Assembly: GCA_963803315.1 (NCBI GenBank)
Contig: CAWDLY010000020.1
Coordinates: 136,426-200,425, forward strand
Direction: 5' to 3'
DNA length: 64,000 nucleotides
From: an uncultured Verrucomicrobiae bacterium
GTDB taxonomy: Bacteria; Verrucomicrobiota; Verrucomicrobiia; Chthoniobacterales; UBA10450
In this document: positions 1,453 to 30,605 of the stretch, in pieces
Position numbering within the stretch: the stretch's first letter is position 1
How the letters are laid out: every line of letters begins with the position of its first letter
Position numbers and translations under genes: made by a program
Notes under the pieces: generated by a model
Databases searched by the model: none
What the model saw: the letters and a program-made list of their open reading frames with translations, nothing else
What the model was told of the DNA's origin: nothing

Positions 1453-1515
1453 AAGGAGCGGCGCTTTCTAAAGCGCCGTTTAATAAAATCGGCGACTTGG
1501 AAGTCGCCGCTCCTT
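1453..1515. repeat. Palindromic repeat, family E (AAGGAGCGGCGCTTTC..AAAGCGCCG ... CGGCGACTTGGAAGTCGCCGCTCCTT)
   Basis: Two nested hairpins bounded by inverted AAGGAGCGGCG/CGCCGCTCCTT ends. A second copy lies at 58317-58372 in the opposite orientation. Confidence 0.7.
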
Positions 1516-1582
1516 GGCAGCTCGTTGGCGAACGACACCTCTGCGCTTGGAATTTTCGGGAAACCGTCCAAAATTGAACGCT

Positions 1583-3728
1583 ATGTCTGCCACTGTTAGC
1601 AGCTCGATGATTCAGCGCGAAATCAGCGACGTAGGTATCTGCATGCTCATCTTCGATCGGCCCGAATCGGGTGCGAACATTTTCGACGCTCCCACGCTGG
1701 CCGACTTGAGCGAACACGTGGCTTTTATCGAAAATGAGCCAACGCTTAAGGGCTTGATCATCACTTCCGCGAAGAAATCGATTTTCATCGCGGGCGCTGA
1801 TCTCAAGACGCTGATGCGCCAGGCTGCGCGCGGCGAAATGCGCACGTTCATTGCCGAAGGCCAGCGCGTTTTCAATCGCATCGCTGCCTTGAAAATTCCG
1901 ACATGCGCCGCCATTCACGGCGCCTGCGCCGGCGGCGGATATGAAATCACGCTCGTGTGCGACTATCGCGTCGCGTCGAACGATCCATCGACCAAAATCG
2001 GTTTGCCGGAAACGACATTGGGCCTGATTCCCGCCTGGGGCGGCGCAACTCGCTTGCCGCGATTAATCGGTGTCGAAAAATCCGCCGACGTAATTCTGAA
2101 AGGAAAATTGTATCCGGCCGCGGAAGCGAAAGAGCTTGGACTCGTCGATGAAGTTGTAGCGCGCGAGCAATTGTTGGAAGCGGCAAGAGCAAAACTCCAA
2201 ACAGGAAAAAAACGGCCCCCACCCTCCCCTCTCCCTGAGGGAGAGGCGGACGGCAAAGCCGCCGGTGAGGATCAAACACGCAGCGTGTTGCAAACCGTCG
2301 GAAATCCAGCACCAGCCCGTGCCCGCGAAATCATTTCCAAAACACTCCACGTTTCGATTGACGATTCGTTGCAAATGGAACTCGACGCCATCGTTGATCT
2401 CGGCGAAACGGAATCGACGCGCAATCTGGTCCGCAATTTCTTTCTGGCGGACAAGTATCGCAAAGGCAGCTCAAAACCTGTCGCCGAGAAAGTCGCCCAT
2501 GCCGCGGTCATCGGCGCCGGCGTAATGGGTTCGGGCATCGCGCAATGGCTCAGCTCGCGCGGCGTCTCCGTGATTTTGCGTGACGTTAATGCCGAAGCGA
2601 TCGATCGCGGGCTGGCCAACATCGACAAAACTTACGGCGATGCGGTAAAGCGCGGCTTGATGAGTGAAGACGAAAGCGAAAGAGGGCCGCGCTCGCATTG
2701 TCGCTTCCACTGCACCCGTGGAAATGCGCAACGTGCAAATTGCGATCGAAGCGGCGTCAGAAAAGCTCGAAATCAAAAAGCAAATCTTTGCCGATCTCTC
2801 CGCGAAAACTGGGCCGGCTGCGATTCTCGCGACGAATACCTCGGCGCTGCCGATAGCCGAACTGGCCGCCACCACGAAATCGCCGGAACGCGTTATCGGC
2901 ATGCATTTTTTCAATCCCGTCAGCCGGATGAAGCTGGTGGAAGTAGTCGTCGGCAAACAAACCGCGCCGGAAACAACCGATCGCGCGCTCGCATTTACGC
3001 GACAGATCGGAAAGCTGCCTGTGCTTGTGCAGGACAGTCCCGGCTTTCTCGTCAATCGGGTGCTTTTCCCTTATTTGATCGAAGCTGCGCAACTCTACGA
3101 AAACGGCGTGAGCGCGAACGAAATTGATGAGGCCCTCGTCCCATGGGGGATGCCAATGGGTCCGCTTCGGTTAATCGATGAAATCGGCGTCGATATCACG
3201 ATCGACATCGCGGACACACTCGAGAAAGCTTACGGCGAACGCGATCGCGCACCGGACATTTTGCGAAAAATGCGCGAGGACGGAATGCTCGGTCGCAAAT
3301 CTGGCAGTGGCTTCTACAAATACGAGGGCAAGAGGCAATCGCCTAACGAGACGCTCCAGCAGTGGCGCAGCACCTCCAGCGGTCATCCCGAACGAAGTGA
3401 GGGACCCGACCAAGCTGGAACTCGCGGGGTTCCTCGCTCCGCTCGGAATGACAGCGAGAGCGATCTCGCGCTTCGTCTTGTTTTTCTCATGGTGAATGAA
3501 GCGGCGCGCTGTCTCGAAGAAAAAGTTGTCGCCACGGCGGAAGATGCCGATTACGGCATGATTCTTGGAACGGGATTCGCTCCCTTTCGCGGAGGACCAC
3601 TGCGCTTTGCCGATCATTTCGGCATCGCGGAAATGGTTCGCGCGGGAGACCGGCACGGCGGAAAATTCAAACCGTGCGATCTGCTGCGGCAGCACGCGCA
3701 GAACAACACCAAATTTTATGAAGATTAA
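1583..3728 (+). pseudogene. Bifunctional enoyl-CoA hydratase / 3-hydroxyacyl-CoA dehydrogenase (FadB/FadJ-like), one frameshift
   Basis: N-terminal crotonase fold, then a Rossmann motif AVIGAGVMGSGIAQ and MHFFNPV. ORFs 1514-3127 and 2664-3728 join as ...GLMSEDE|AKEGRARIVAS with a 1-nt shift at AAA 2673-2675. The probable start is ATG 1583. Confidence 0.75.
3382..3452. repeat. Palindromic MITE-like repeat (family A) inserted in-frame in the fadB-like gene
   Basis: GTCATCCCGAACGAAGTGAGGGA ... TCCTCGCTCCGCTCGGAATGAC inverted arms. It is translated as GHPERSEGPDQAGTRGVPRSARND inside an otherwise conserved C-terminal region. Confidence 0.75.
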
Positions 3729-12347: not shown

Positions 12348-12602
12348 TTATCCGATTTTTTTCCGAAAGCGCAAGTGCGCAGACACAGAAAAGCAAAATC
12401 GAGATGCCGATAAGGATGACAAGGTGCTGCCAGTATTCGAATAAGTGTGCGCCGCGCAGGATTATTGCACGCATGAGCGAGATGAAATAGGTGGCGGGCA
12501 AGATTGTGCTCAGGGCGTAGAAAATCGGTGGCATGGTTTCGCGCGGGAATACGAAGCCGGAAAAGAAAACGCTTGGCAACATGAAGACCATCGACATTTG
12601 CA
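12348..12602 (-). pseudogene. Orphan 3' fragment (last ~85 codons) of an ABC-2 permease
   Basis: Encodes LQMSMVFMLPSVFFSGFVFPRETMPPIFYALSTILPATYFISLMRAIILRGAHLFEYWQHLVILIGISILLFCVCAL, identical in protein to the end of the 29481-30605 gene. About 18 nt substitutions are all synonymous. A 1-nt indel lies just before the stop. Confidence 0.85.
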
Positions 12603-13429: not shown

Positions 13430-13487
13430 TTGAGTTGGAGCAGTGATCGCTTTCCCTTTCCAACGGTGTGTCGAAGTGGCCGCTACA
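13430..13487 (-). promoter_or_regulatory. Conserved upstream motif L, copy L1 (candidate ECF-type promoter)
   Basis: On the minus strand: TGTAGCGGCCACTTCGACACACCGTTGGAAAGGGAAAGCGATCACTG. It ends ~20 nt before ATG 13412 and shares its core with L2-L5. Confidence 0.5.
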
Positions 13488-13660
13488 AAAGAATTGTAAG
13501 TTTCCTTTCAAGTCACTTCGCGGAATGAGCAGTTCCTTCAATCACAACACGCGAGTGAATCTCGCACGGCTGGTTCGCGTATGATGCGCCGTTTCAGCGC
13601 CGAGCTGCAAACTAGTGTCGCGAAAGTGAAAAAGGGGGACAGGAAGTAACTGTCCTTATT

Positions 13661-14407: not shown

Positions 14408-14468
14408 GAGGTTTGAGCGATTGACTCGCTTTCCCTTTCCAACGGCGTTCCGCAGCCGGCGCTACACA
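14408..14468 (-). promoter_or_regulatory. Conserved upstream motif L, copy L2
   Basis: On the minus strand: TGTGTAGCGCCGGCTGCGGAACGCCGTTGGAAAGGGAAAGCGAGTCAATCGCTCAAACC. It ends ~20 nt before ATG 14388. Confidence 0.5.
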
Positions 14469-14512
14469 AAGGTAGTGTTCGCTGATTGTTAGCGGCGCGT
14501 GGCTTCGTCGTT

Positions 14513-14587
14513 GTAGCCGGGATCGGTGATCCCGGGAGTGAGTCCGGCGCCTCTTCCGGAGCGGCCGGGGTCACCGACCCCGGCTAC
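14513..14587. repeat. REPIN-like doublet (GTAGCCGGGATCGGTGATCCCGG ... CCGGGGTCACCGACCCCGGCTAC)
   Basis: Inverted REP-like units with GTAG/CTAC ends in the divergent spacer. Confidence 0.65.
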
Positions 14588-14697
14588 AACTGCGCTCCGC
14601 ACAGAGAAACAACTGGCAATTCACCAACACTACCCTGCGCAGACATTGATTTTTTTTCACGCTTGCCTTCCCGATTGCCTCGCAGCACCCTAACGAA

Positions 14698-15471
14698 GTG
14701 AGTTCCCTGCCGGGCGCTGTCCGTGGCGGGAGCGATGATCCCTTCGCTCCCACCCATTGGAGCGTAATCGCCGCGGCATCGAGAAATGAAATCGAGCCGG
14801 AGCAAGCCCGCGCCGCGCTCGGGCAGCTTTGCGAAGTGTATTGGGCGCCCCTTTACGCGTTCGTCCGCAGTCGCGGCCATTCCGTGCACGATGCGCAGGA
14901 CCTCACGCAAAGTTTTTTCGCTCACCTGATCGAACGCGAAATATATGGCCGGGCTGATCGCGCCAAGGGCCGGTTCCGCTCCTTCCTGCTCGCTGCTTTG
15001 AAAAACTTTCTGGCCGACGCCTATGCGTACGCGCACGCGCTGAAGCGCGGTGGTGCGGAGGATTTTTTACCTCTCGATGAGAGTCGGGCCGAGGCGGCGG
15101 AATCGCTTTTCCAGACGCATTCGAAAACCGGTGAGCCGATCGGAGAAGATCGGCTTTTTGAGAAAAGCTGGGCAGATGCGCTCGTTGCCACCAGTCTGGC
15201 GCGGCTTTTAGCAGAGTATCAAAGCGAAGACAAACAGACGCTCTTTGAGCGATTAAAGATTTTTTTGACCGGAAGCCCGGACCCGCTGCCCAGCTACGAT
15301 CAGCTTTCCATTGAAATGGAAATGCCGGCTTCCAGCATACGCACATACGTTACGCGCTTGCGCCAGCGTTACCGCGAAACTTTGCGCGCTGAGGTCCGCC
15401 AAACAGTCGAGACCGAGGCGGAAGTAGATGAGGAATTGCACGAGCTGTTTCGCGTGCTGTCCGCAACGTGA
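14698..15471 (+). CDS. ECF-type sigma-70 factor of the Ser/Thr-kinase-linked type (ECF43-like)
   Basis: 257 aa with an N-terminal PFAPTHWSVI motif, sigma-2-like LCEVYWAPLYAFVRSRGHSVHDAQDLTQSFF, and sigma-4-like SYDQLSIEMEMPASSIRTYVTRLRQRY. Its stop overlaps the kinase GTG (GTGA). Confidence 0.75.
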   Translation: MSSLPGAVRGGSDDPFAPTHWSVIAAASRNEIEPEQARAALGQLCEVYWAPLYAFVRSRGHSVHDAQDLTQSFFAHLIEREIYGRADRAKGRFRSFLLAALKNFLADAYAYAHALKRGGAEDFLPLDESRAEAAESLFQTHSKTGEPIGEDRLFEKSWADALVATSLARLLAEYQSEDKQTLFERLKIFLTGSPDPLPSYDQLSIEMEMPASSIRTYVTRLRQRYRETLRAEVRQTVETEAEVDEELHELFRVLSAT

Positions 15472-18295
15472 AAGTCCTAACCGTGAAAACGCTCGCTCCC
15501 CGCATCGCGCTTTGTTCGACATGCGGCAGGATGTTGAATGAGAAAGGCGAGTGCATGTCCTGCCTTGTTCGGTTGGGGTTTGATCAGCCGTTACCGGAAT
15601 TGTCTTCCGCAGTCTTCGGCGATTTCGAAATCGTGCGGCGCGAAGATGGCTTATTTTGGGAACTCGGACGCGGCGCGATGGGTGTGACTTATCGCGCCCA
15701 GGACAAGGTGTTGAATCGCACCGTCGCGTTAAAAGTGATCGACCCACCGGCAACAGAAGGCGGCGGGCAGGCGGTGCGGGATCGTTTCTTGCGCGAGGCT
15801 CGCGCCGCGGCGGCCTTTCGCCATCCAAATGTGGCAGGTGTGTTTCACTTCGGCGCCTCGAGCGAAGGCGATCGTTGCTACTATGCCATGGAGCTGGTCG
15901 AGGGCGAAACTCTCGAAGCACTCGTTAGGCGTGATGGTCCGTTAGAAGTCAAAGTCGCGCTCGAAATGACAGTTCAAGTCACGCGCGCGTTAATCGCAGC
16001 GGCAGCGCATGGACTCATCCATCGCGACCTTAAGCCGGGTAACATCATGTTGATCCGAAGCGACGCTTCAGAGCTTGAGGTTAAAGTGATCGATTTCGGT
16101 TTAGCCAAAGCGATTGCGGATGGTGGAAAAGAAATGGACTTGACCAAGGGCGGCTTCATCGGCACGCCTGCTTTCGCCAGCCCCGAGCAATTCAGCGGCG
16201 CAGCCGCCGATGCGCGCTCCGATATCTACTCGTTAGGCGTGACGCTTTGGTATGCGCTCACGGGCGAGGTGCCGTATCAGGGAAAAACTATTGAAGAGAT
16301 TCGCCATCGTCAGAGCGATCTCCCACTGCCAGTACAAAATTTGGTCGCGCGCAAAATCCCGACTCCCGTTATTCAGCTACTGCGTCGAATTCTCGCCGTG
16401 GATCCAACCCAACGACCAGCATCGGCTCGGGATTTTATGGAAGCCCTGGATTCGTGCCGCTCACGTTTGGGGCTTATTCCTTTGCCAAGATCGAAAGTGC
16501 GACAAGCCGTCCGCATGGACTTGCAGCCCTTGCCGCTGCGGTGGCGGTCGGCGCCGTAGGTTTTTTTGCTTTCCGGCCATCGCAGCAGAAACCAACGCCC
16601 GCTATAGCAGCCACCGCGCAAGTAGCACTGCCGCCGGTAGTCATACCTAGGAAGTCGATCGCGGTTCTGCCATTCGAAAATCTTAGCGCGGAGAAGGAGA
16701 ACGCTTTCTTCGCGGATGGAGTGCAAGACGACATCCTTACGGCGTTGTCGAAAATCGCCGACCTCAAAGTCATCAGCCGGACCTCTGTGATCAGTTATCG
16801 CGCAGGGGCCGCGCGCAACTTGCGCGCGATCGCTCAAGAATTGGGTGTCGCCAATATTTTGGAAGGCAGTGTTCGCCGCGCCGGAGGCAAAGTCCGGGTA
16901 ACAACCCAACTGATCAATGCGCAGACCGACGCTCATTTGTGGGCCGATACTTACGATCGGAGTTTGGAAGATGTCTTCGCGATTCAAAGCGACATCGCAT
17001 TACAAGTCGCGGCGCAACTGCAGGCGAAGCTCTCGCCCAGCATCAAGTCCGCCATTGAGGAGCGTCCCACCAGCGATTCGATCGCATATGAGTTTTACAC
17101 GCGGGCTAAATTACTCCGGCAACAACCGATGACGGCGCCAGCTGAACAGTTGGAGGCGATAGCATTGCTTGACCAGGCGGTGAGGCGAGACCCGCAGTTT
17201 CACCTTGCCTATTGCGCATTGGTGTCGTTGCACACGCTGTAATACGCGTACTTTGAACATGTGCCGGCACGACGCGCTTTGGCGGAGCGCGCTCTCGAGG
17301 CGGCAGTCCGTTTGCGGCCGGACGCGGCCGAAACTCATCTTGCTCGAGCGGATTACTATTATCGCTGCGACTTTAATTACGACAAAGCCAGGGCAGAACT
17401 CGCGCTGGCCCAGCGGGAACTTTCTGGCGAACCGCGCTTTTTCATCACCGCAGCCCGGATGGACCGATGTCAAGGCCGCTGGCAGGACGAACCTCGCAAT
17501 TGGGAGAAAGCGCTCGAACTCGATCCTCGGAACATGCAGAGCTATAAGCAGCTCTACGAATCTTACCGGGAGGTGCGGCGCTATCCAGAAGCCGCCGCGG
17601 CTCTGCAGCGCGCAGCGGCCATCGATCCGGCCGCGCCGTGGCCGCGGATATTACGCGGCGACCTCGAACTTCAGTGGCGGGCCAACACCAAGCCTTTGCA
17701 TGAGATTTTCGACGAGTTGATAAAGAAAGATCCAGAGAATATTTGGACCGAAGTGTGGTTCGACCTTGCCCTCTGCGAGCGTGATCCAGATGCGGCTGCC
17801 AGAGCCGCGGCTGAACTGGAGTGCGACCTACGATGGTGTGTGGCTCCGCGAGGGGTGGTTTAAGGGTTTAGCCGCGCGCATCCGCGGCGACGAGACGGCG
17901 GCAAGAATGGCGTTCACCGCGGCTCGTGTGGCAGCCGAAAAGGAGGTAACCGAGCAGCCAGATTACGGTCCTCCATTGTGCGCGCTCGGCCTTATCGACG
18001 CCGCTCTCGGACGGAAAGACGAGCGATCCGGGAAGGTCGGCGCGCCGCAGGAACTTCTCCCGGTAACCAAAAATGCTATCGCCGGCGCAATATATCCAAG
18101 ACATTCCTCGCCCTGATCTACGTCTTCTGCGGGGAGAAGGACCTTGCGATTGAACAACTGCAAACTTCGATGAAATCCTACAACGCCATGTTGTCCTACG
18201 GGGAACTCCGCCTGCATCCGTTCTGGGATCCGTTGCGCGGCGATCCGCGTTTTGAGAAACTCGTCGCCAGCCTTGCGCCCAAGCCGGGTGAGTAA
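15468..18295 (+). pseudogene. Membrane Ser/Thr protein kinase with periplasmic TPR domain (copy 1), at least 4 disruptions
   Basis: Order of parts: Cys4-like N-terminus (CSTCG..CMSC), Hanks kinase (HRDLKPGNIML, DFGLAK, GTPAFASPEQ), a TM segment, then KSIAVLPFENLS... and TPRs. The gene is split over ORFs 15468-16559, 16454-17242, 17261-17863, 17766-18116 and 17978-18295. Confidence 0.75.
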
Positions 18296-18318
18296 GTGCC
18301 CAACCACTACAGCCGCGA

Positions 18319-21216
18319 TCAGAATTTCTTCGTTAGGCTAAAGTAAATAAACCGCCCGGTGGGGTCGTAGAGGTACCTGTGGATAATCATTCACGCTATC
18401 GGGCGGGTCGTGGTCGAACAGATTGGTACAACCAACCGAAACGCGCATGCCATCGAGGATTTGCTTCCAACCCGGGCGGGCGTGGCTACCGCTGATGGAG
18501 GTGAAGTCGTAGGCTGCTTGCAGGTCAAAAAACCAGGTTTGCTTCACCCAGTGTTCTCGGCCGTTAAGGCCGAATTCGTGAAAACCGTCACGATAATTCG
18601 ACTGTGGCGGACAACTCGAAGTCCCGCCAACTCCAATCAAGGCGGGATGTTCCTTTCCATTTTAAATAGGCGTCTTCAGAAAAGAAAACGGTTGGGCTGG
18701 GGCTGCTGCGCAGCTCTTTTTCCTTTTCCCCGGGGACGGAGGAGAATTGAAAGGAATCCAGGAAGGCTCACTTGCGTGACGGAGGTGAAAGTTCCGAAGG
18801 ACGTCTGGAGCTGATACTGGAGGGCGAAATCAACGCCGCGGGCTTTTTGTGTCCCGCTGTTTTGATAGGACTCTGACATCGCCAGAAGGTTTCCGTTGGC
18901 ATCTCTCGTGGCGCTCTCGCCCGGCAGTGGATTTCCGGCCGCAACGCGCGCAAGAACATCTTCCGGATCTGGATTCGGGTTAATCCATCCGGTGGTTTCG
19001 ATGTCGAAAAGATCTACGGTCAGGGTGAGCCCCGGAATGAATTTTGGCGTGTAAACGAACCCTCCGCTGAAAGAACGGGAATCCTCCGGTTGCAGGTTAG
19101 GGTTATTGAGAAACGTCGTTGGAACTTCACTAACCTCTGCGCCCGTGACCGGATCTCTCACGTCCTGGAAGAATAGAACGAGCTCCTTGCTGTGCCGAGG
19201 TTTACCAGTGAAGGTTGTTTGAAACCTTCGCCCCAGGTCGCGCGGAAAGTGAGCGAATCGTCGAACGGCTGCCAGCGCATTCCAAACTTTGGCACCATCA
19301 CATTGCTGCCGTTGTTGAGAAATTCTTCGTAGCGGACCGCGGCGGTAAATTCCAGCGCATGAAACCCGGGTGCGGTGCAGCCGGAGCCGAAAACCGGGAT
19401 ACTCGTTTCGGCATAAGCGGCGTACTCGCTTCGGCTTGCGCGCACAGGGAAAAAGATGCCGGTGCCGAGAAGATCCCCGGCATTTTGCAGGACAGTTGTT
19501 TCCTGGCTGTTCGTCTCGTGTTGAAATTGTCCGCCGAAAGCGAGGCCGACGCCGCCCGCGGGCAATTTGAACAGTTCCGTCGTGTAGATGTTGACGTCGA
19601 CCGTCGTCGCACTACCGCGGTCCGGTTCGCGCTCGTGCAGAAGCACGTAGTCAATAAGCCGGTAATTCGATGCGATCGGTCTGCGATAATCGCCGAATGG
19701 ATTGTAAGGAGTGGTTGTGCCGATGTATTCCGGGGAGCTCGGATCAAAGATCGGATCGGCCGCATTGAGCGTGCGATTGAAACGCGATGGCAGAAGGACC
19801 ATTCCAAATGGTGGTGCTAAGAATGTGGCTGTAACGAAATGCGGCGTCGTAACCCCACGTGCCGTCAAAGAGTTTATCTCCTTTGATTCCGGCGGTGGTG
19901 AAAAATGCATCGACCTTGGTGTCAAACTTCGCGATTTCCCAATTCAAAGGTGCGTCCTCTGCTTCCGCCGGAGATTATTTGTTGAAAGGGATTGAAGGGA
20001 TTGTAAGCGCCGGGAGATACACCAGTTTCCTCATAGGTCGGACCTCCGAGCACCGCCCCGGGCGCATGTGGTGGAATCGCGATGAGCGGAAGCCCTGGCG
20101 ATTGAAAATCGTTAGTATTGGAAGGAGCCAATTCGTTGTGCGTATTGACACGTTGATACAGGAAGTCGGCGTAAATCACCATCTGGTTATCGAAGACTCC
20201 GTGATGCGCGTTTAAGTAGGCGCCGTAACGCTCGGAGTCCGGCAGGGCGCTGGTGAAAATCAACGGCGGGAATAGGACACTGCGTCCTTCCGAATAGGTA
20301 TAGGCCGAGGCCGGAGCAGAACCATTACTGAGAAATGGCGCGTGCCCAAAGAAGGTATCGCCCGACCCTGGAGGTGGATTGCCTCCAGCTGCGATCACTG
20401 CTGCGCGCGACAAGCTCCAGATTAAACGGACTGGCATTCGAACTGAGAATGGTTCGAGGTGTCTGGGTCGCCGAATACGATCGGTCACTGTTGAAAATAG
20501 AGTTCCTGCGGTAGTAATTAAGGACGCCGGTGACATTGGTATTTTCACTGCCGAGTCCGAAGACGAGCGAAGAAGCGAACTCAGTTGAATCTTTGTTCGT
20601 CGTATTTCCAGCCTCGATATTCACTTCTGCATCCGTGTAATTGTGGCGCAACTTAATGTTGATCACGCCGGCCACGGCATCGGCGCCATAGGTGGTCGAA
20701 GCACCGTCTTTCAGGATCTCGATGCTTTCGATTGCGGCTTTCGGAATCGAATTCAAGTCGATGAACAACTGCGAGCCATCGGCCGTCCCACCCGGAAAAG
20801 GCGTTACACGATGTCCATCAATCAAAACAAGTGTCGCTCCCGGATCGAAACCCCGCAACGAGATTGACGAAGCACCCAGCGCGAGAGGACTAGACGCATT
20901 ATTGTTCGCGATCGCGACGCCATTGGCGTTCGCGATCGGCAGATTCTTGATCAACTCCTCGCCGGTGCGTTCTCCGGAGGCGTCGATCACTGTGCGAGTG
21001 ATAACCTGCACCGGGTTCGGCCCCACTTCCGCCGCCGTTGGAATAAGAGAGCCAGTGACCATCACGCGCTCAGCCTCCGCAGTCTTCGAAGCTTCGCTAG
21101 CCGATTCGTCGCCCGGGGTTGGCGTTGCCTGCTGTGCGCTAATCGTCGCGCCTAACGACAGGACAGATCGTTGTCGTGAATGCAAGAGCACAACTCTTGC
21201 GGATTAGATTTTTCAA
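18319..21216 (-). pseudogene. TonB-dependent receptor (copy 1), at least 5-6 frame changes
   Basis: TTG 21216 gives MKNLIRKSCALAFTTTI. This is followed by a plug domain (ISLRGFDPGATLVLIDG, IEILKDGASTTYGADAVAGVINI), barrel fragments in ORFs 20325-21191, 19922-20548, 19158-19925, 18676-19161 and 18338-18640, and a terminal FIYFSLTKKF followed by a stop in yet another frame. Confidence 0.75.
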
Positions 21217-21448
21217 GGTGGGGTCCTTTCATCGCTTGCAAAGCCGTGCGAAAGAAAGCGACCGTGAGCTTGGGGCCAACCCTGCGATCTATTGCCGACG
21301 TTGAGTAACGCTACCTTGGCGGATGCCTCAAACCGATTGCAAGCATCAAATTCGGTAAACATAGACAAGCGAGTTCACACCGCTTTCTTTTAAGAGTTGA
21401 AGCGATGATCGCTCGCCGTTTCCAACGGCATTCGAGAACGAGCGCTAC
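21217..21448 (-). promoter_or_regulatory. Receptor leader including motif L3 (core 21385-21448)
   Basis: Minus-strand TGTAGCGCTCGTTCTCGAATGCCGTTGGAAACGGCGAGCGATCATCGCTTCAACTC plus ~170 nt up to the TTG. It is almost identical to 27555-27786. Confidence 0.55.
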
Positions 21449-21505
21449 ACAAATTGCGATTTTTCTGCGCTTGCCTTTGCGATTGCTTCGCACCAACCTA
21501 ACGAA

Positions 21506-21635
21506 GTGAGTTCCCTGCCGGGCGCGGACGTGGCCGGAGCGATGATCCCTTCGCTCCCACCCATTGGAGCGTGATCGCCGCGTCATCGAGAAATGAAATT
21601 AAGCCGGAGCTGTTCGCGTGCTGTCCGGTACCTGA
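21506..21635 (+). pseudogene. Remnant of the ECF sigma gene (internal ~690-nt deletion)
   Basis: The first ~30 codons (SSLPGA...PFAPTHWSVIAA..RNEI) are fused directly to the last codons (LFACCP..). The junction lies at the shared CCGGAGC microhomology. Compare 14698-15471. Confidence 0.75.
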
Positions 21636-21701
21636 AAGTCCTAACCGTGAAAACGCTCGCTCCCCGCATCGCGCTCTGTTCGACATGCGGCAGGATATTG
21701 A

Positions 21702-24462
21702 ATGACGAAAGGCGAGTGCATGTCCTGCCTCGTTCGGCTGGGGTTCGATCAACCCCTGCCGGAACTGGCTTCAGCTGTCTTTGGCGATTTCGAAATCTGC
21801 CAGCGCGAGGATGGCTTTCTTTGGGAACTTGGACGTGGCGCGATGGGTGTGACTTATCGCGCTCAGGACAAGGTGTTGAATCGCAGCGTCGCATTGAAAG
21901 TGATCGACGCACCGGCGACAGAAGGCGGCGGCCAGGCCGTGCGGGATCGCTTTTTGCGCGAGGCGCGCGCCGCTGCGGCTTTCCGTCATCCGAATGTAGC
22001 AGGTGTGTTTCACTTCGGCGCTTCAACCGAAGGCGATCGTTGCTACTATGCGATGGAGCTGGTCGAAGGTGAGACTCTGGAGGCACTCGTTAGGCGCGAC
22101 GGTCCGTTGCAAGTCAAAGCGGCGCTCGAGATGACGGTTCAAGTGACGCGCGCCTTAATTGCCGCCGCGGGGCACGGTTTGATCCATCGCGATCTCAAGC
22201 CGGGTAACATCATGTTAATCCGCAGCGACGCTTCCGAGCTTGAGGTTAAAGTGATCGATTTCGGTTTAGCCAAAGCGATCGCGGATGGTGGAAAAGAAAT
22301 CGACCTGACCAGGGGTGGCTTTATCGGCACGCCTGCTTTCGCCAGCCCCGAGCAGTTCAGCGGCGCAGCGGCCGATGCCCGCTCCGATATCTACTCGTTA
22401 GGCGTGACGCTTTGGTACGCGCTCACGGGCGAGGTTCCCTATCAGGGAAAAACCATCGAAGAGATTCGCCATTGTCAGAGCGATCTCCCACTGCCGGTGC
22501 AAAATTTGGTCGCGCGCAAAATCCCGACTTCCGTCATTCAGCTATTGCGCCGCATTCTCGCAGTTGATCCAACTCAGCGGCCAGCGTCAGCTCGGGAATT
22601 TATGGAAGCCCTTGAGTCATGCCGCTCACGTTTGGGATTCATTCCTTACCAAGAGATCGAAAGCGCAACAAACCTTTCGCATGCTCGCGGCCCTCGCCGC
22701 GGCAGTCGCGGTCGGCGCTGTGGGGTATTTCGCTTTCCGGCCGTTGCAACAGAAACAAACGCCGGCTATTGCAGGCACCACGCAAGGAGCATTGGCGCCG
22801 GTGGTCATACCGATGAAATCGATCGCGGTTCTGCCATTTGAAAATCTCAGTGCCGAAAAGGAGAACGCATTTTTCGCGGATGGAATGCAGGACGACATCC
22901 TCACGGCGTTATCGAAAATCGCCGACTTAAAAGTCATCAGCCGTACCTCCACGATCAGCTATCGCGCGGGGGCCGCCCGCAACTTGCGCGCGATCGCGCA
23001 AGAATTGGGCGTCGCTAATATTTTGGAAGGCAGTGTACGTCGCGCGGGAGGCAAAGTCCGGGTAACAACGCAACTGATTAATGCGCAGACCGACGCTCAC
23101 CTATGGGCCGATACTTACGATCGCAGTTTGGACGATGTCTTCGCGATTCAAAGCGACATCGCGTTACAAGTCGCGGCCCAACTTCAGGCGAAGCTCTCGC
23201 CCAGCGTCAAATTCGCCATTGAGGAGCGTCCCACCCGCGATTCGACAGCATACGAGTTTTACACCCGGGCTAAACTTCTCCGGCAAAAGCCGCTCACGTG
23301 GTCCGAGGATCAGTTGGAGGCGATAGCATTGCTGGACATGGCGGTGAAGCGAGACCCGGAGTTTCACCTTGCCTACTGCACGTTGGTGTCGCTACACGCG
23401 ATCTTATACGCAAACTGGGAACATGTGCCGGCACGGCGCGCTTTGGCGGAGCGTGCCCTTGAGGCAGCAGTCCGTTTGCGGCCGCGTGCGGCCGAGACTC
23501 ATCTCGCTCGAGCGGATTACTATTGTCGCTGCGAGTTTGATTACGACAAAGCCCGGGCAGAACTTGCCTTGGCCCAGCGGGAACTTTCTGGCGAACCGCG
23601 GTTTTTCATCACCGCAGCCAAAATAGACGGATTTCAAGGCCGTTCAGAGGACGAACCTCGCAATTGGGAGAAGGCACTCGAACTCGACCCCCGCAACATG
23701 CAGAGCTACAAGCAGCTCTTCGAATCTTACCGTCACGTGCGGCGCTATTCAGAAGCCGCCGCGGCTCTGCAACGAGCAGCGACTATCGATCCGACCTCGG
23801 TGTGGCCGCGGATATTACGCGGTGAACTCGAACTGCAGTGGCGGGCCAAGACCAAGCCTTTGCATGAGATTTGCGACGAGTTGATGAAAGATCCAGAGAT
23901 CGCCGCTAGTTGGGCCCATGTGTGGTTCGGCCTTGCCTTCTGCGAGCGTGATCCAGATGCGGCTGCCAAGGCGGCGGCGGTGGTTGAAGAACTGACTTAC
24001 GACGGGGTGATAGTTCCGAAGGCGTGGTTTGCTGGTTTATCTGCATCGAGCCGAAACGACCAAATCACGGCAAAGAAAGCGTTCATGTCAGCTCGCGCTG
24101 AAGCGGAAAAAACATTAGCGGAGCAGCCTGAAGAAGGAACGGCGTGGTGTGCGCTTGGCCTCATCGACGCCGCTTTGGGACGGAAAGACCGAGCGATTCA
24201 TGAAGGTCGCCGGGCTGTGGAACTTCTCCCCGTAACCAAGAATGCTGATACCGGTGGGATTATCCAGGATTTCCTTGCCCTGATCTACGTCTTCTGCGGG
24301 GAGAAGGACCTTGCGATCGAACAACTGAAGACTTCGATGAAATCCTACAACGGCATGTGGTCCTACGGAGAACTCCGCCTGCAGCCGTATTGGGATCCGT
24401 TGCGCGGTGATCCGCGTTTTGAGAAATTCGTCGCCAGTCTTGCGCCGAAACCGGGCGAGTGA
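21702..24462 (+). pseudogene. Membrane Ser/Thr protein kinase with periplasmic TPR domain (copy 2), 1-2 frameshifts
   Basis: The kinase domain is ~95% identical to copy 1. ORFs 21702-22841 and 22564-24462 join near 22682-22690. The ancestral GTG start and Cys4 N-terminus are lost (extra C near 21700, and GTG changed to CTG at 21632). Confidence 0.7.
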
Positions 24463-24534
24463 GCGTTGATCACCGTGACCCTGATCAGAGTTTGTCAACC
24501 GGACTCTTCGATTAAAAGAGGTTCAAACGAAACT

Positions 24535-27500
24535 CTAAAATTTCTTCGTTAGGCTGACATAGACGAAGCGGCCAACGGCGTCGTAAATGAAACCCGGATA
24601 GCCCGTCGAGTTACCGAAGCCCCCGAAAGCTATTGGGTTATCCTGGCCAAATACATTGTTGCAACCAACCGTGATGCTAGTGTTGTTCACCAGGTTCTTC
24701 CAGCACGGCATTGAGTAATTGGCCGTTTGTGAGTGGCTTCGCGACGATCCTTACTGTCCTTAGAGTATCCTGCCACTGGCTGTGACTCCACCGGAGGCGC
24801 GAAAGCGAAGTTGTAGGTTCCCTGCACATCAAAGGTCCAGGTGGCCTTGATCCAATGCTCCTTCTTTTTGTCAGGCAAAAAGTCCGCATCGAAGAGAATT
24901 TCGTGGAAACCACTGATGTAGTTCACGCTCGCGAAGATATCGAAGTTGTTCCAAGTCCAGTCGAGCGACGATCTGCCCTTCCATTTCAGATAACCATCGT
25001 CGGCGGTCGAAGATGAGAAACCCGTCCCTATTCCCGATATTTGTCCGACCGGAGTGCCGCTGACTTCGATCGTTGGATTGCCGGCAGTCAGCTGTAGTCT
25101 GAAGGAATCCAGATATGTCGCCTGCGTCAGCGAAGTAAATGTGCCGAAGGGCGATTGGTATTGATATTGGATTCCAAAATCGACACCACGTGCGCGCGCC
25201 TGGGCGGCGTTTTGGAAGGTAAAGCCGATGAGTGAGATGTTGCCGGCGACGTCACGCTCGACGAACTCACCAGGAAGGAGAGTGCCAGCAGCCTCACGAG
25301 CGAGCACCTGATTGGCATCTGGCGTCGCCACGACACCTGTGCGTTCGATGCTCCAGAGATCGAGCGAGAGAGTCAAACCCGGCACGAATTTGGGCGTAAA
25401 GACCACGCCTGAGCTGAATGAGTGCGAGTCCTCTGGTTGGAGATTCGGATTGCTCGAAAACAGGATATTTGTTTCTGATTCGAAATTTCCCGTGAGAGGA
25501 TCGGTCGTAGGCGTAAGTGCCAGCGGTGGCGCCCGAAAATAGCTCAAAGAGCGACGGTTCGCGGAAGCCTTTACCCCATGTCGCGCGGATGGTTAACGAG
25601 TCGTCAAAGGGCTGCCAGCGCATACCCAGTTTCGGCACCAAAACATTCGTGTCGTTGTTGCGAAACTCTTCGTAGCGGCCCGCCGCATTAAATTCCAAGG
25701 CGCGGAAGCCAGGAATCGCGTTTTCCGGGCTGAAAATCGGAATGGACGTCTCCGCATAGAACGCAAACGTTTTGCGGCCGCCGATCCGTACCGAAGAGGC
25801 CCACGTCGATGATCGATTGATCCACGCTCTGCTCGATGTTTTCACGGCGGAACTGTCCGCCGACGGCAAACCCAACACCGCCCGCCCGGAAGTTTAAACA
25901 GCTGGGTGGTGTAGATGGTCGCGTCGAGGGTTGCCAATTTAGAGGAATCGATCTCCTTGGGATGCCCGAGAACGAAATCCACGAGCGCGGCATTGGAAGG
26001 GATGTCAACCCGATAATCGCCAAATGGATTGTAGGCAGCCGCTCCTTCGAGAACTCCGCCCGGTCCAAAGATCGGGTCGGCCTGATTCAAAACTTGATTA
26101 TAACGCGGGATGGAAACGATCTGTGCCGTAAAAGTCTCCTTGACTTGACTGTAGCGGAACCCGAAATCGTAACCCCAGTTCCCGTCGAATAGTTTGTCAC
26201 CTCTGGCACCGAGGGTGAAGAGTATTGCATCGGTCTCGTCATTAAATAGTCGGTTGCCGAATTCAGCCGCTCGCAAACGGCTGCCGCCCGAAATAATCTG
26301 CCCAAACGGATTGAATGGGTTGAAGGCATTGGCCGGAACTCCGGTCTCCGCGTGGGTTGGTGTGTCAGGTGGTTCAGCGCCGGGCGCGATCGGTGTATTT
26401 GGGGGAATTGCGATCGCGATAAACCCAGCGGTCTGGAAATCTCCAGTGGCTAGCGGCGCCAGTTCGTTATGGGTCTTTACATTTTGATAAAGCATGTCGG
26501 CATAGAGCACTAATTGTTCGCCACAGATCTTGTGCTCGGCGTTCACGTATCCGCCCCACCGTTCCGATTCCGGAAACGAGCTCGAGAAGGCGTTAAAGTT
26601 AAAGAACGAAGTACGCCCGAGCTCGAATAGACATAGTCCGAGGCCGGGCTAAAGCCATTCGTGAAGAACGGCGCATGACCAAAGAATACGGGAAGCGGCA
26701 CACCATTGGCGTCCACAGGGAGAGTCGCCGGATCGACTCCCGCTGCGATGACTACGTCCCTGCTTAACTGCAAATTTGCCGGACTTGAGTTCGTGCTAAG
26801 GAATGGCGGCTTGGAGGAAAGCCCACCACGGTCACGGTTAAAGATCGAGTTGTGATGATAATAGTTAATGACACCGCTGACCTGCGTCGTCTCATCGCCG
26901 ATACCAAACAGGAGGTCGGCCGTGTAAAGGCCACCATCCTTGTCGAGTGTATTGCCATAAGATAGTGTCGCCTCCGCTCCACGGTAATTGTGGCGGAGCT
27001 TGAGGTTGACGACACCAGCAACCGCGTCTGCACCGTAGGTGCTCGAAGCGCCATCCTTCAGAATTTCAATGGAGTCGATCGCCGCCCGTGGGATCGAATT
27101 CAAATCCACGAAGGATGTTGTGCCACCGTTTCCAATCGGATACGGGGCAACACGCCTGCCGTCGACCAAAGTGAGGGTGGCACTGGCATCGAAACCGCGC
27201 AGCGAAACCGAAGAAGCGCCCGAAGTAAAGCCGGTCGCGTTATTCGAAACAGGAACACCATTGGCATTCGCCACCGGGAGATTGCGGATGAGTTCTTCGG
27301 CGTTGCGCTCACCGCGCTTGTTGATCAAATCGCGATTGATGGTCAAAATCGGGTTCGGCCCCACTTCTTCCGCCGTTGGAATGTTGGAACCGGTTACAAT
27401 GACGCGCTGAGCTTCCGCAGTCTCCGAAGCTTCGATTGCCGATTGGTCGCTCGGAGTTGGTGCTGCCTGCTGTGCACTAGTCGTCGTGCCTAACGACAGA

Positions 27501-27554
27501 ACGATCGTCGTAGTGAATGCAAGAGTACAGACCCTTGCGGATTAGATTTTTCAA
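24535..27554 (-). pseudogene. TonB-dependent receptor (copy 2), at least 5 frame changes
   Basis: TTG 27554 gives MKNLIRK. The plug and barrel lie in ORFs 26543-27364, 25842-26546, 25294-25878 and 24687-25547. The C-terminus ...GRFVYVSLTKKF followed by a stop is in another frame. About two-thirds identical to copy 1 by eye. Confidence 0.75.
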
Positions 27555-27786
27555 GGTGGGGTCCTTTCATCGCTTGCAAAGCCGTGCGAAAGAAAGCGAC
27601 CGTGAGCTTGGGGCCAACCCTGCGATCTATTGCCGACGTTGAGTAACGCTACCTTCGCGGATGCCTGAAACCGATTGCAAGCATCAAATTCGGTAAACAT
27701 AGGCAAGCGAGGTCACATCGCTTTCTTCGAAAGTTGAGGCGACGATTGCTCGCCGTTTCCAACGGCATTCCGGATCGGGCGCTACA
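27555..27786 (-). promoter_or_regulatory. Receptor leader including motif L4 (core 27723-27786)
   Basis: The first ~125 nt upstream of the TTG are identical to copy 1. The core is GTAGCGCCCGATCCGGAATGCCGTTGGAAACGGCGAGCAATCGTCGCCTCAAC. Confidence 0.55.
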
Positions 27787-27854
27787 AGAAATCCGTTGGA
27801 ATCAGAATTATCCAAACGGATTGCATCCCCGAGTGCGCTCTTCGCTAATCATGC

Positions 27855-27870
27855 TGTTCCGTACGGAACA
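27855..27870. promoter_or_regulatory. Operator-like palindrome P2 (TGTTCCGTACGGAACA)
   Basis: Perfect 16-bp palindrome ~70 nt upstream of motif L4. Confidence 0.6.
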
Positions 27871-27894
27871 CAATTTTTGAGGCTGGATTGGCCG

Positions 27895-28024
27895 GATGCC
27901 TCAACTCGGTTGCAAACATCAAATTGCGTAAACATACCCGAGCAAAGTCACGCCGCCTTCCTTCAAAAGCTTGAAGCAACCGATCACTCGCGGTTTCCAA
28001 TGGCATTCCAGAACGAGCGCTACA
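27895..28024 (-). promoter_or_regulatory. Orphan third copy of the leader with motif L5 (core 27961-28024)
   Basis: GTAGCGCTCGTTCTGGAATGCCATTGGAAACCGCGAGTGATCGGTTGCTTCAAGC plus a diverged leader start. No gene follows it before L4. Confidence 0.5.
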
Positions 28025-28086
28025 AGAAATCGTTGGAATTATCCAAGCAGATGTATCCGCGAGCACAGCTTTACGCTTAAATATGC

Positions 28087-28102
28087 TGTTCCGTACGGAA
28101 CA
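28087..28102. promoter_or_regulatory. Operator-like palindrome P3 (TGTTCCGTACGGAACA)
   Basis: Lies 50 nt upstream of the PaaX-like start (28152) and ~65 nt upstream of motif L5, in a divergent control region. Confidence 0.6.
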
Positions 28103-28151
28103 CAGTTTTAGACTGGACATTGTGATCGCGGTTTGTCTTGGCTGGCAGGAT

Positions 28152-28922
28152 ATGAACTCCAAAACCGAAGAATTTCTTTATCTGTTGCTCTGGGGAGCCG
28201 AGACCTTAATGCATCCCACCTTCCGCAATTTGCATGAGTCGTATGAAGGGTGGGCCTACCGCACAGGCCTGCTGCCGCAACTTGCAAGACTTGAACGACG
28301 CAAGCTGATCGAGAAAAAGCCGGGAAAGATGGCTCAGCGCATCTATCGCCTCACCGAAACCGGCCGTCTCACCGCCCTGGCGGGTCGCGATCCTGAGGCC
28401 CGCTGGAGCCGTTCCTGGGACGGGCGATGGCGACTCGTTGTATTCGATTTGCCTGAAAGACAGAATGCCGCACGCGTGCGACTCCGGCGTTTCCTGAAGG
28501 AGCGCAATTTCGGTTACCTTCAGAACAGTCTTTGGATCACGCCGGACCCTTTGGATGATAGAGTGGCGAAACTAGGTGCGGGCGGCAAGGACGTCGAATC
28601 GTTCCTGACTCTGGAGGCCCGGCCCTGCTCGGGAGAGAGCGACCGGGCGATTGTCGCGGGAGCGTGGGATTTCAATAAGATCAATCGGCGTTACGAGGAT
28701 TGTCTCTGCTTGCTGAAAAACCACCCGCCGTTTCATCGAATTGCTGCTGCAGGTACGGACAAGCTTTGGCAATGGGCGCGGCGGGAGCGGGTCCTCTGGC
28801 GCGCGGCTATCCAAAGCGATCCGCTTTTGCCATCGGTGCTTCTGCCGAGAGGCTACCGCGGCAAAGAAGTCTGGCGCAAGCGGAACTCGGTGTTACGAAA
28901 AGCCGGGCAACGGTTTAAGTAA
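28152..28922 (+). CDS. PaaX-family transcriptional regulator
   Basis: N-terminal wHTH (LARLERRKLIEKKPGKMAQRIYRLTETG), then the PaaX signature WDGRWRLVVFDLPERQNAARVRLRRFLKERNFGYLQNSLWITPDP. ATG 28152 is preferred because ATG 28083 lies inside palindrome P3. Confidence 0.75.
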   Translation: MNSKTEEFLYLLLWGAETLMHPTFRNLHESYEGWAYRTGLLPQLARLERRKLIEKKPGKMAQRIYRLTETGRLTALAGRDPEARWSRSWDGRWRLVVFDLPERQNAARVRLRRFLKERNFGYLQNSLWITPDPLDDRVAKLGAGGKDVESFLTLEARPCSGESDRAIVAGAWDFNKINRRYEDCLCLLKNHPPFHRIAAAGTDKLWQWARRERVLWRAAIQSDPLLPSVLLPRGYRGKEVWRKRNSVLRKAGQRFK

Positions 28923-29480: not shown

Positions 29481-30605
29481 TCACCCGATCTTTTTTCGGA
29501 ATCGCAGCGCGCAGACGCAGAAAAGCAAAATCGATATGCCGATAAGGATGACGAGGTGCTGCCAGTATTCGAATAAGTGTGCGCCGCGTAAGATGATCGC
29601 GCGCATGAGGGAAATGAAATAGGTCGCAGGCAGAATCGTGCTCAGGGCGTAGAAAATCGGCGGCATGGTTTCGCGCGGGAAGACGAAGCCGGAAAAGAAA
29701 ACGCTCGGCAACATGAAGACCATCGACATTTGCAAGGCCTGCATTTGGTTCTCGGCTTTGGTGGCGACGAGCAGGCCGAGACTGAGCAATGCGAATACGT
29801 AAACGAGCGTCGCGAACATCATCGCGATCACGCTTCCGTTAATCGGCACGCCAAACAGGAATCGCATGATCAGAAACAGGATCACGGCCATCATCATGCC
29901 GATGCAGAGATAGGGAACGAGTTTGCCGAGCATAAGTCCCCAACGGCTGAGTGGACTAACGAGTAATGTCTCGAGCGTTCCTTTCTCGCGTTCGCGCACG
30001 ACGGCCATGGCGGTGGCGAAGGTGGTGCCGATTTGCAGGACGATGCCGATCACGCCCGGGATGTAGAAGTTCGGGCTTTTCATCGCCGGGTTGTAAAGCA
30101 TTTGCGGGCGGATCTCGATCGGCACATCGCGTCTTCCGCTTTCGCGCAGGAGCGTTTCGATCGATTGCGTGAGACCGACGGCAAGCGCGGTGTTGAGCGC
30201 TTGGAGCGCAGTTGTGGAATTCGAACCGTCGATGAGCAATTGCACCTGAGCGGGATTTCCAGCACGCACATCGCGCGTGAAGGTCGGCGGAATCTCGAGT
30301 CCGACATAGGCGCGACCACCGCGAATCGCGCTTGCCAGTTCGTCGATGCTTCGCACTTCGCCGACGACGCGAAATGTTTCGGTGTTCACGAATCGATCGA
30401 TGAACTGCCGGCTCTCGACCGTGCGATCTTCGTTCAGGATCATCATCGCCATGTGTTTCACATCGGTGTCGAGCGCGTAACCGAACGCGATCATTTCCAC
30501 GAGGGGCGGGAAGAACATGAAGAACAACGTCATCGGATCGCGCCAGACGATGATGAATTCCTTGAACAAAATGGCGCTGAGGCCGCGGAAGGGAACGTGT
30601 TTCAT
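29481..30605 (-). CDS. ABC-2 type transporter permease (YbhS/YbhR-like)
   Basis: 374 aa with 6 TM segments and an ABC-2 membrane domain. It lies downstream of the ABC ATPase and the HlyD-like gene. Confidence 0.85.
   Translation of the reverse strand: MKHVPFRGLSAILFKEFIIVWRDPMTLFFMFFPPLVEMIAFGYALDTDVKHMAMMILNEDRTVESRQFIDRFVNTETFRVVGEVRSIDELASAIRGGRAYVGLEIPPTFTRDVRAGNPAQVQLLIDGSNSTTALQALNTALAVGLTQSIETLLRESGRRDVPIEIRPQMLYNPAMKSPNFYIPGVIGIVLQIGTTFATAMAVVREREKGTLETLLVSPLSRWGLMLGKLVPYLCIGMMMAVILFLIMRFLFGVPINGSVIAMMFATLVYVFALLSLGLLVATKAENQMQALQMSMVFMLPSVFFSGFVFPRETMPPIFYALSTILPATYFISLMRAIILRGAHLFEYWQHLVILIGISILLFCVCALRFRKKIG

Follow-up and report, generated by a model that had tools for sequence, protein, structure and literature searches.

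A TonB-dependent receptor beside an ECF-like sigma factor and a transmembrane kinase with a CadC-like periplasmic sensor in an uncultured Verrucomicrobiae bacterium

Results

We analyzed a 64,000-nt stretch of DNA (the window) from an uncultured Verrucomicrobiae bacterium (UBA10450; assembly GCA_963803315.1, contig CAWDLY010000020.1); all coordinates are window positions. At 14698 to 21216, a gene for an extracytoplasmic function (ECF)-like sigma factor is followed by an overlapping gene for a Hanks-type Ser/Thr kinase, which converges on a gene for a TonB-dependent receptor (TBDR). An earlier note on this DNA had read the arrangement as a cell surface signaling layout with the kinase in the place of the anti-sigma factor, and the elements that it listed are all present in the sequence. 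The sigma factor gene (sigma 1; 14698 to 15471, plus strand) is intact and encodes 257 amino acids with a weak Sigma70_r2 match. Its TGA (15469 to 15471) overlaps the GTG start codon at 15468 of kinase 1 (15468 to 18295, plus strand) in the string ACGTGAAAG, and 23 nt lie between the TAA of the kinase gene, ending at 18295, and the stop codon (18319 to 18321) of TBDR 1 (18319 to 21216, minus strand); both the GTGA overlap and the tight convergence had been pointed out earlier and are borne out. These genes form unit 1 of a tandem pair. Unit 2, at 21.4 to 27.8 kb, comprises a sigma factor gene remnant (sigma 2; 21506 to 21631, plus strand), recognized by repeat families D11, D12, and D14 and by translation and lacking ∼645 bp that correspond to 14804 to 15448 of unit 1, together with a second kinase gene (kinase 2; 21632 to 24462, plus strand) and a second receptor gene (TBDR 2; 24532 to 27554, minus strand). 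As the earlier note had stated, no FecR-like gene is present: a Pfam scan found no match among the open reading frames (ORFs) of 14.7 to 27.6 kb, and the sigma factor, kinase, and receptor genes occupy the whole of this space, leaving no room for a further gene.

The two kinases share one architecture, which matches the cytoplasmic Hanks domain, single transmembrane segment, and large periplasmic TPR domain described previously. A Cys-rich, zinc-ribbon-like N terminus precedes the kinase domain (Pkinase, E = 3.7e-42 for kinase 1 and 3.2e-42 for kinase 2), in which the catalytic motifs VALKVI, HRDLKPGN, DFG, and SPEQ are readable in both copies; behind it come a transmembrane helix and a periplasmic part with a CadC-like/FlgO-like domain and TPR matches. 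Both genes are interrupted in the assembly, kinase 2 by two +1 frame changes (21706 and 22653); the homologue at a related locus, L005, is a single intact ORF of 932 amino acids. An AlphaFold2 model of the sensor part of kinase 2 (22654 to 24459) reached a pLDDT of 89.4, and a Foldseek search against the PDB matched it best to the periplasmic domain of CadC (3LY7/8/9/A, E ∼1e-7), with a target-normalized TM-score of 0.69 to 0.73 and a root mean square deviation of 4.2 to 4.9 Å over ∼315 to 340 columns at 13% sequence identity. The TPR superhelix lies behind the CadC-like part of the model, and the NCBIfam CadC model PRK10153 also matches the sensor weakly (1.3e-6). The predicted structure thus indicates that the sensor has the CadC periplasmic fold, a likeness at the level of fold only.

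Both receptors are recognizable as TBDRs despite interrupted frames in the assembly. Each has a Plug domain (E = 4.9e-19 and 1.2e-20), barrel matches, and a C terminus ending in TKKF; a TonB-box-like sequence, AQRVIVTGSNIP, was read in TBDR 2, and relatives carry ETERIIVTGS. The intact receptor of L005 is 48 to 66% identical to TBDR 1 over well-aligned parts, in 8 pieces, and its overall range against the window's receptor is 50 to 67%. The earlier note had raised the question of an N-terminal signaling extension, and the answer is negative: Pfam shows Plug and barrel alone, without an STN domain, in both window TBDRs and in the L005 homologue, and the NCBIfam FecA model aligns to the receptor only from profile position 132 on, that is, from the plug. 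Ahead of the TonB box, the mature receptor has only ∼20 to 25 low-complexity residues. A relay of the FecA kind that starts at the receptor therefore lacks a structural basis here, and sensing of an imported ligand in the periplasm would be simpler. The leader ahead of each receptor gene contains an ORF of 49 codons whose end coincides with the TTG start codon of the receptor; in unit 1 (21213 to 21362, minus strand) this ORF begins MFTEFDACNRF and its TGA overlaps the TTG. The DNA at 21193 to 21389 is 97% identical to the receptor leader of unit 2, and an Rfam search of the two leaders returned no match to a known RNA or riboswitch.

We surveyed gene linkage in two directions, using 86 loci with relatives of the sigma factor (80 genome loci and 6 contigs; forward survey) and 80 soil metagenome loci with relatives of the TBDR (reverse survey). 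Relatives come from Chthoniobacterales and Candidatus Udaeobacter soil metagenome-assembled genomes (MAGs), many of them from a long-read survey. The sigma-kinase pairing is conserved, as had been proposed, with a kinase gene following the sigma factor gene in ∼82 to 84 of the 86 forward loci. At 7 of the 86 loci, the pair has a receptor gene next to it (L005, L010, L019, L021, L032, L066, and L082, all distinct MAGs). Receptor ORFs made up 5 of 185 immediate neighbors versus 0 of 636 genes at a distance of 3 or more (P = 5.6e-4). In the reverse survey, ∼22 of the 80 TBDR loci had an adjoining sigma factor, kinase, or sensor gene, and sensor or kinase ORFs accounted for 17 of 115 immediate neighbors compared to 4 of 263 distant genes (P = 1.2e-6). 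The order seen most often is sigma factor, kinase, and receptor on one strand, with gaps that are often short or overlapping; the convergent layout seen in the window is found again at L090, L145, and L165, and a receptor divergent from the sigma factor gene recurs at L066. The earlier note had named a lack of conserved linkage as an outcome that would speak against a connection; because the linkage recurs in several genomes and gene orders, this is not what we observed. The receptor link is not due to chance.

The identity of the receptor's neighbor was more constant in its periplasmic part than in its cytoplasmic part. The adjoining gene always encodes one periplasmic module, in which a FlgO-like domain is followed by TPR and then by a "TPR end" domain. 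What varies is the cytoplasmic output: it is a kinase, preceded by a sigma factor gene where the contig permits; a class III cyclase (L066, L093, L147/148, and L152); a kinase-cyclase fusion (L082); or without a recognizable output (L019). It is therefore the periplasmic sensor module that stays constant beside the receptor, rather than the kinase or the sigma factor. The pairing of kinase and receptor in the earlier note stands insofar as the linkage recurs, but the shared element is the sensor, which also occurs in cyclase versions. Among kinase-bearing pairs, TBDR identity tracked sensor identity (rho = 0.73) more closely than identity of the kinase domain (rho = 0.27). For example, L005 and L087/088 share 68 to 70% identity in the receptor and 83 to 84% in the sensor, versus 53 to 54% in the kinase domain and ∼45% in the sigma factor; L082 and L152, whose outputs differ, are 69% identical in the receptor and 73% in the sensor. 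We regard this covariation as supportive, not decisive.

Sigma 1 belongs to a large family, with more than 7,500 relatives and 87 to 88% identity to the closest of them. Its N terminus, PFAPTHWSVI, bears out the THWS type assigned to it earlier: T19, W21, S22, and V23 are nearly invariant in an alignment of 24 relatives. In NCBIfam, the generic sigma70-ECF model scored 32 bits, below its cutoff of 42.9, a few non-FecI subfamily models matched far under their cutoffs, and no FecI-type model matched the window sigma factor. The earlier note had also called this sigma factor ECF43-like. The ECF43 group is defined by replacement of the DAED of region 2.2 with uncharged residues plus a conserved Thr (QTTA/STTA), and activation supplies the charge through phospho-Thr in this region (PMC13147305, PMC8999054). 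The association with a kinase and the absence of an anti-sigma gene fit that description; region 2.2 does not, since the window sigma factor and all aligned relatives retain acidic residues there (HDAQDLTQSFF or EAEDxTQGFF). Unlike the ECF43 proteins, this family also carries an N-terminal FxxT(H/R/Q)WS and a long linker between regions 2 and 4. By the region 2.2 criterion, ECF43 membership was ruled out. With region 2.2 acidic throughout the family, a phosphorylation site, if any, must lie elsewhere; we infer only a candidate, the conserved N-terminal T(H/R/Q)WS.

A 45-nt motif, which we call motif M (motif L in the earlier note), precedes the receptor genes and several other genes. In promoter orientation its consensus is TTTCGTGCAGCACGCGCTCCGGAATCCCTTTGTAAAGGGAAAACG, with the layout GGATTCC-N8-TGCTGCACGAAA. 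A position weight matrix (PWM) search found five copies in the window, all on the minus strand and within the variable segment. The motif at 21410 to 21454 (PWM score, 32) lies in promoter orientation before the TBDR 1 leader, with TBDR 1 on one side and the remnant of sigma 2 on the other, and so upstream of the receptor gene, as stated in the earlier note; that at 27747 to 27791 (44.5) is likewise before the TBDR 2 leader. Two further copies precede exported-protein genes: 14427 to 14471 (46) lies before the gene at 13785 to ∼14388 (minus strand), divergent from sigma 1, with an ATG and the N terminus MNTNQTNVSFQSLR 38 nt beyond it on the reverse complement, and 13448 to 13492 (23) lies before the gene at 12654 to ∼13430 (minus strand), followed by an N terminus with a signal peptide. 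The fifth copy, at 27985 to 28029, is an orphan, with a truncated leader beginning MFTQFDVCNRV, 55 nt before a PaaX-like gene (28083 to 28922, plus strand). The region of motif and leader is duplicated in tandem here (27658 to 27895 and 27893 to 28130; 235 to 238 nt), which leaves this orphan and its truncated leader ORF immediately ahead of the PaaX-like gene.

Across the family, motif M lies ∼100 nt ahead of the sigma factor start in ∼83 of 100 members, loci without a TBDR included. Read on the reverse complement, most of 112 matches are followed by an A-rich leader and then an ATG 25 to 55 nt past the motif, and in most printed cases this ATG begins a signal-peptide-like N terminus. Genes preceded in this way encode PAP2/vanadium haloperoxidase-like, heme peroxidase-like, multicopper oxidase, beta-propeller, and cupin proteins as well as unknown repeat proteins. 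Arrays of the motif also stand before minus-strand genes without any plus-strand gene to serve. Outside the window, the motif is oriented toward a receptor gene at L066 and L093 only. Judged by position and orientation, motif M is a promoter-like site that belongs to the genes diverging from the sigma factor gene and, most simply, would be the sigma factor's target promoter. The earlier proposal that the sigma factor acts on these promoters is fitted by the orientation of the motif before both receptors and before other sigma-divergent genes. We rejected motif M as the sigma factor's own autoregulatory promoter, given the minus-strand-only arrays and the ATG and signal peptide beyond the motif; the region may also have a second, sigma-directed function. 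A sigma-54-like GG-N10-GC reading within motif M was likewise disfavored by the orientation evidence.

Several separate observations concern these upstream regions. At L079, L039, L014, and L073, arrays of three to four genes preceded by motif M lie upstream of the sigma factor gene and encode secreted haloperoxidase-like, heme peroxidase-like, and repeat proteins, which suggests that these sigma-kinase pairs control a set of extracellular oxidative enzymes. In the window, a GC-rich inverted repeat at 14510 to 14590 (26-nt arms, 92% complementary, GTAG...CTAC ends, resembling repetitive extragenic palindromes) sits between motif M and sigma 1 and expands the spacer from ∼55 to ∼230 nt. Another upstream element, TATCGGRTTT-N9-TGCCTAGAAAAA, lies 280 to 340 nt before the receptor match at L111, L121, L127, L131, and L155; this element (TATCGGRTTT-N9-TGCCTAGAAAAAAA) belongs to receptor relatives without a sensor neighbor, and its layout resembles that of motif M.

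Divergence between the two units differs sharply from gene to gene. The kinase domains are 94.5% identical in amino acid sequence, with a ratio of nonsynonymous to synonymous substitution rates (dN/dS) of 0.06; the sensor domains are ∼73% identical (dN/dS, 0.40), and the receptors 56% identical, with dS saturated and a dN/dS of 0.12. Values far below 1 indicate purifying selection on both copies. Judging from this uneven divergence, the two units did not arise simply by a recent duplication: the receptors are old paralogues, whereas later homogenization probably affected the sigma-kinase part and the leaders.

Several of these genes are interrupted in the assembly. In kinase 1, two bases are inserted at 16518, the frame meets a TAA near 17240, and five other small indels occur, and each receptor gene has several frame changes (at least six in TBDR 1). 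We compared the window with short-read contigs from a public soil run. Over the flank at 30 to 50 kb, 61 of 67 short-read contigs were at least 99% identical to the window, with zero indels. Over 14.4 to 28.2 kb, most were just 90 to 95% identical, and many of the differences lay multiples of three apart, the pattern that related alleles with intact frames would give. At or near the frame changes, the short-read contigs had +CG at 17829, −1 at 20411, a net +4 at 19179 to 19206, and +C at 21528. A 98% identical contig lacked 5 bases at 24734 to 24747 in TBDR 2, and a 292-nt contig, otherwise 100% identical, lacked one base at 22654 in kinase 2. We concluded that the region is strain variable, with a poor consensus, and that most of the frameshifts are probably artifacts; the nonsense codon near 17240 and the sigma 2 deletion are excluded from this statement. 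The broken state of the genes implied by the earlier note describes the assembly, but it is at least partly an assembly artifact. True pseudogenes, as a general statement, were unsupported given the short-read indels at the frameshift sites and dN/dS far below 1. Separately, the closest related kinase gene (L001, 10640 to 13594), from the same long-read survey, has about a dozen 1-nt deletions within 1 kb, outside homopolymers, and exemplifies local consensus failure in these assemblies. Dense frameshifts in strain-variable parts of long-read MAGs should not be equated with pseudogenes unless the reads have been checked.

Discussion

We propose that the TBDR would bring a substrate into the periplasm, where the CadC-like/FlgO-like and TPR domain of the kinase would detect either this substrate or the transporter in its loaded state. 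The kinase domain, by analogy with EcfP/PknT and EcfK/PknS, would then activate the co-encoded sigma factor by phosphorylation, and the sigma factor would transcribe the genes behind motif M, a promoter role suggested by the motif's position and orientation. The putative targets are two receptor and two exported-protein genes in the window and mostly secreted oxidative enzymes in relatives. The receptor would be both signal entry point and target, forming a positive loop as in FecA or SusC systems, and the loop would run without FecR and without a signaling domain on the receptor. We give an even chance to the chain as a whole, from ligand import by the receptor through periplasmic sensing by the kinase and sigma factor activation to induction of the receptor and exported proteins. 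The same odds apply to our reading of the locus as an envelope module with which soil Chthoniobacterales respond to a nutrient or ligand. The recurrence of this receptor family beside the sensor module points to a kinase-based variant of outer membrane nutrient signaling. Of the relay imagined in the earlier note, from receptor or periplasmic ligand to the TPR sensor of the kinase, the sigma factor, and the motif-bearing promoters, the linkage and the motif placement hold up, but the receptors are devoid of a signaling extension.

A number of observations weigh against this model. The co-occurrence of sigma factor, kinase, and receptor is recurrent and enriched in both survey directions but is limited to a minority, ∼8%, of related sigma-kinase pairs, most of which would drive exported enzymes instead; conversely, at least two-thirds of the TBDR relatives lie amid unrelated housekeeping genes. 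In most TBDR-linked loci the receptor gene is downstream of the kinase gene and has no motif M match, so that its regulation there would need read-through or another promoter. The sigma factor retains DAQD, and the ECF43 activation logic is therefore not directly transferable. Over all 210 pairs, the correlation between TBDR and sensor identity was weak (rho = 0.19, reached by 43 of 2,000 permutations), and there are clear exceptions to the covariation, such as L151 and L165, with 68% identity in the TBDR and 26% in the sensor; the covariation may also reflect plain coinheritance of neighbors. Finally, the genes are interrupted, and sigma 2 has its deletion, in the assembly.

Among alternative explanations, the one that survives best is that the receptor is a mere target, an ordinary member of the sigma regulon, like the secreted peroxidases, laccases, and repeat proteins that take this place in relatives, while the kinase senses something unrelated to transport. 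In the window and at L066, the TBDR fills the divergent, motif M-preceded slot that exported enzymes hold in most loci, and the absence of a signaling domain from the receptors is consistent with such a role. This explanation leaves unaccounted for the presence of the same TBDR family beside cyclase versions of the sensor, with no sigma factor detected nearby, and the tracking of receptor identity with the sensor and not with the kinase domain; we consider it unlikely. A second alternative is direct contact across the envelope, in which the TPR/CadC-like domain would bind the receptor, for instance at a TonB box or plug exposed upon ligand binding, and thereby switch the kinase. Such contact would amount to a FecA-FecR-like relay with other parts or to a "trigger transporter" of the LysP-CadC kind. 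Receptor and sensor module travel together while outputs swap, TPR domains commonly bind extended peptides, and the sensor fold resembles that of CadC, a protein controlled through its contact with a transporter. Against these points stands the receptor extension of just ∼20 to 25 low-complexity residues before the TonB box, and direct contact seems to us rather improbable. The weakest alternative, that the units are pseudogenized remnants whose adjacency in a variable accessory segment has no function, can draw on the many frame changes, the one nonsense codon, the sigma 2 internal deletion, and the position within a ∼17-kb segment bounded on either side by a direct repeat from the 3′ end of an ABC-2 gene, but it is very unlikely given the enriched adjacency in both survey directions, dN/dS far below 1 between copies, and short-read indels at or near 17829, 20411, 21528, 22654, and 24734 to 24747 versus none in the 20-kb flank.

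The model of ligand import and periplasmic sensing resembles, and departs from, several known systems. In EcfP-PknT of Vibrio parahaemolyticus and EcfK-PknS of Xanthomonas citri, as in the window, the sigma factor gene adjoins a gene for a transmembrane Hanks kinase with a TPR periplasmic domain; anti-sigma genes are likewise absent from the ECF43 pairs, and by analogy the expected logic would be activation of the sigma factor by phosphorylation (PMC13147305, PMC8999054). The targets of those pairs differ, being the type VI secretion system and polymyxin resistance, and "TonB" occurs 0 times in either paper (PMC13147305 and PMC8999054). A TBDR link to ECF-kinase pairs, which the earlier note had believed undescribed, was not found in the searchable literature, the supplement of the ECF classification paper aside. 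In FecA-FecR-FecI systems (ECF242 and relatives, PMC7826278), a receptor gene is clustered with genes for an ECF-type sigma factor and an inner membrane protein with a periplasmic domain, and the receptor is, as here, probably controlled by the clustered sigma factor. Unlike those systems, the window has none of the three defining features, namely, FecR, an STN domain, and a FecI-type sigma factor. With a kinase replacing the anti-sigma factor, the logic would be activation instead of release from inhibition.

The lysine permease LysP acts as a cosensor with CadC. The window sensor shares with Escherichia coli CadC (PDB 3LY7-3LYA) its periplasmic fold and the arrangement of a single-pass membrane sensor encoded beside a transporter. 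Unlike CadC, it has a kinase or cyclase output instead of a fused DNA-binding domain, an extra TPR superhelix, and a transporter in the outer membrane. Polysaccharide utilization loci of Bacteroidota link a SusC-type receptor either to a hybrid two-component sensor or to an ECF/anti-sigma pair. The logic there is the one proposed here, in which the receptor imports, an inner membrane sensor detects in the periplasm, and the receptor gene is induced; phylum, sensor family, and output differ, and no SusD-like gene was found among the ORFs scanned. According to the work on Sinorhizobium meliloti cited in PMC9239204 (Garnerone et al. 2018), the outer membrane barrel NsrA is needed for signal perception by the CHASE2 cyclases CyaD1, CyaD2, and CyaK. 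Cyclase-output versions of the present sensor similarly adjoin a receptor, a likeness by analogy alone; NsrA does not belong to the TBDR family of the window, and the sensors that work with it carry CHASE2 in place of CadC-like/TPR domains.

Udaeobacter-like Chthoniobacterales are reported to be among the most abundant soil bacteria, and their members are mostly uncultured, with poorly understood regulation. Kinase activation is a recently demonstrated mode of ECF sigma factor control, and the receptor-sensor link offers a testable candidate for its input, the substrate entering via the receptor. The locus suggests that outer membrane uptake can be wired to transcription without FecR/STN machinery. 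The regulon suggested by motif M is of ecological interest for its secreted haloperoxidase-like, heme peroxidase-like, and multicopper oxidase proteins. A broader possibility, which we put forward tentatively and think less probable than not by a clear measure, is that a TBDR and a CadC-like/TPR ectodomain form a general two-membrane sensing unit of soil Verrucomicrobiota, independent of FecR and STN, in which the ectodomain would read the transport state directly and outputs (kinase/ECF-like sigma factor, cyclase, or both) would be interchangeable.

Other features of the window

Direct repeats of 251 nt, 90% identical, lie at 12352 to 12602 and 29485 to 29734 and represent the 3′-terminal part of an ABC-2 permease gene. 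The ∼17-kb segment between them contains every sigma factor, kinase, receptor, motif, and PaaX element described here, and this bracketing suggests an inserted or rearranged accessory region. A 16-bp perfect palindrome, TGTTCCGTACGGAACA, occurs five times (13664, 27855, 28087, 28941, and 29263), clustered around the PaaX/PadR-like regulator gene at 28083 to 28922, and is a likely operator. Outside this segment, a FadB-like gene (enoyl coenzyme A [CoA] hydratase plus 3-hydroxyacyl-CoA dehydrogenase) at 1514 to 3728 is split into two overlapping ORFs, and serpin and ABC-2 fragments are found at 6.1 to 7.7 kb and 11.4 to 12.6 kb; these features may be errors or real.

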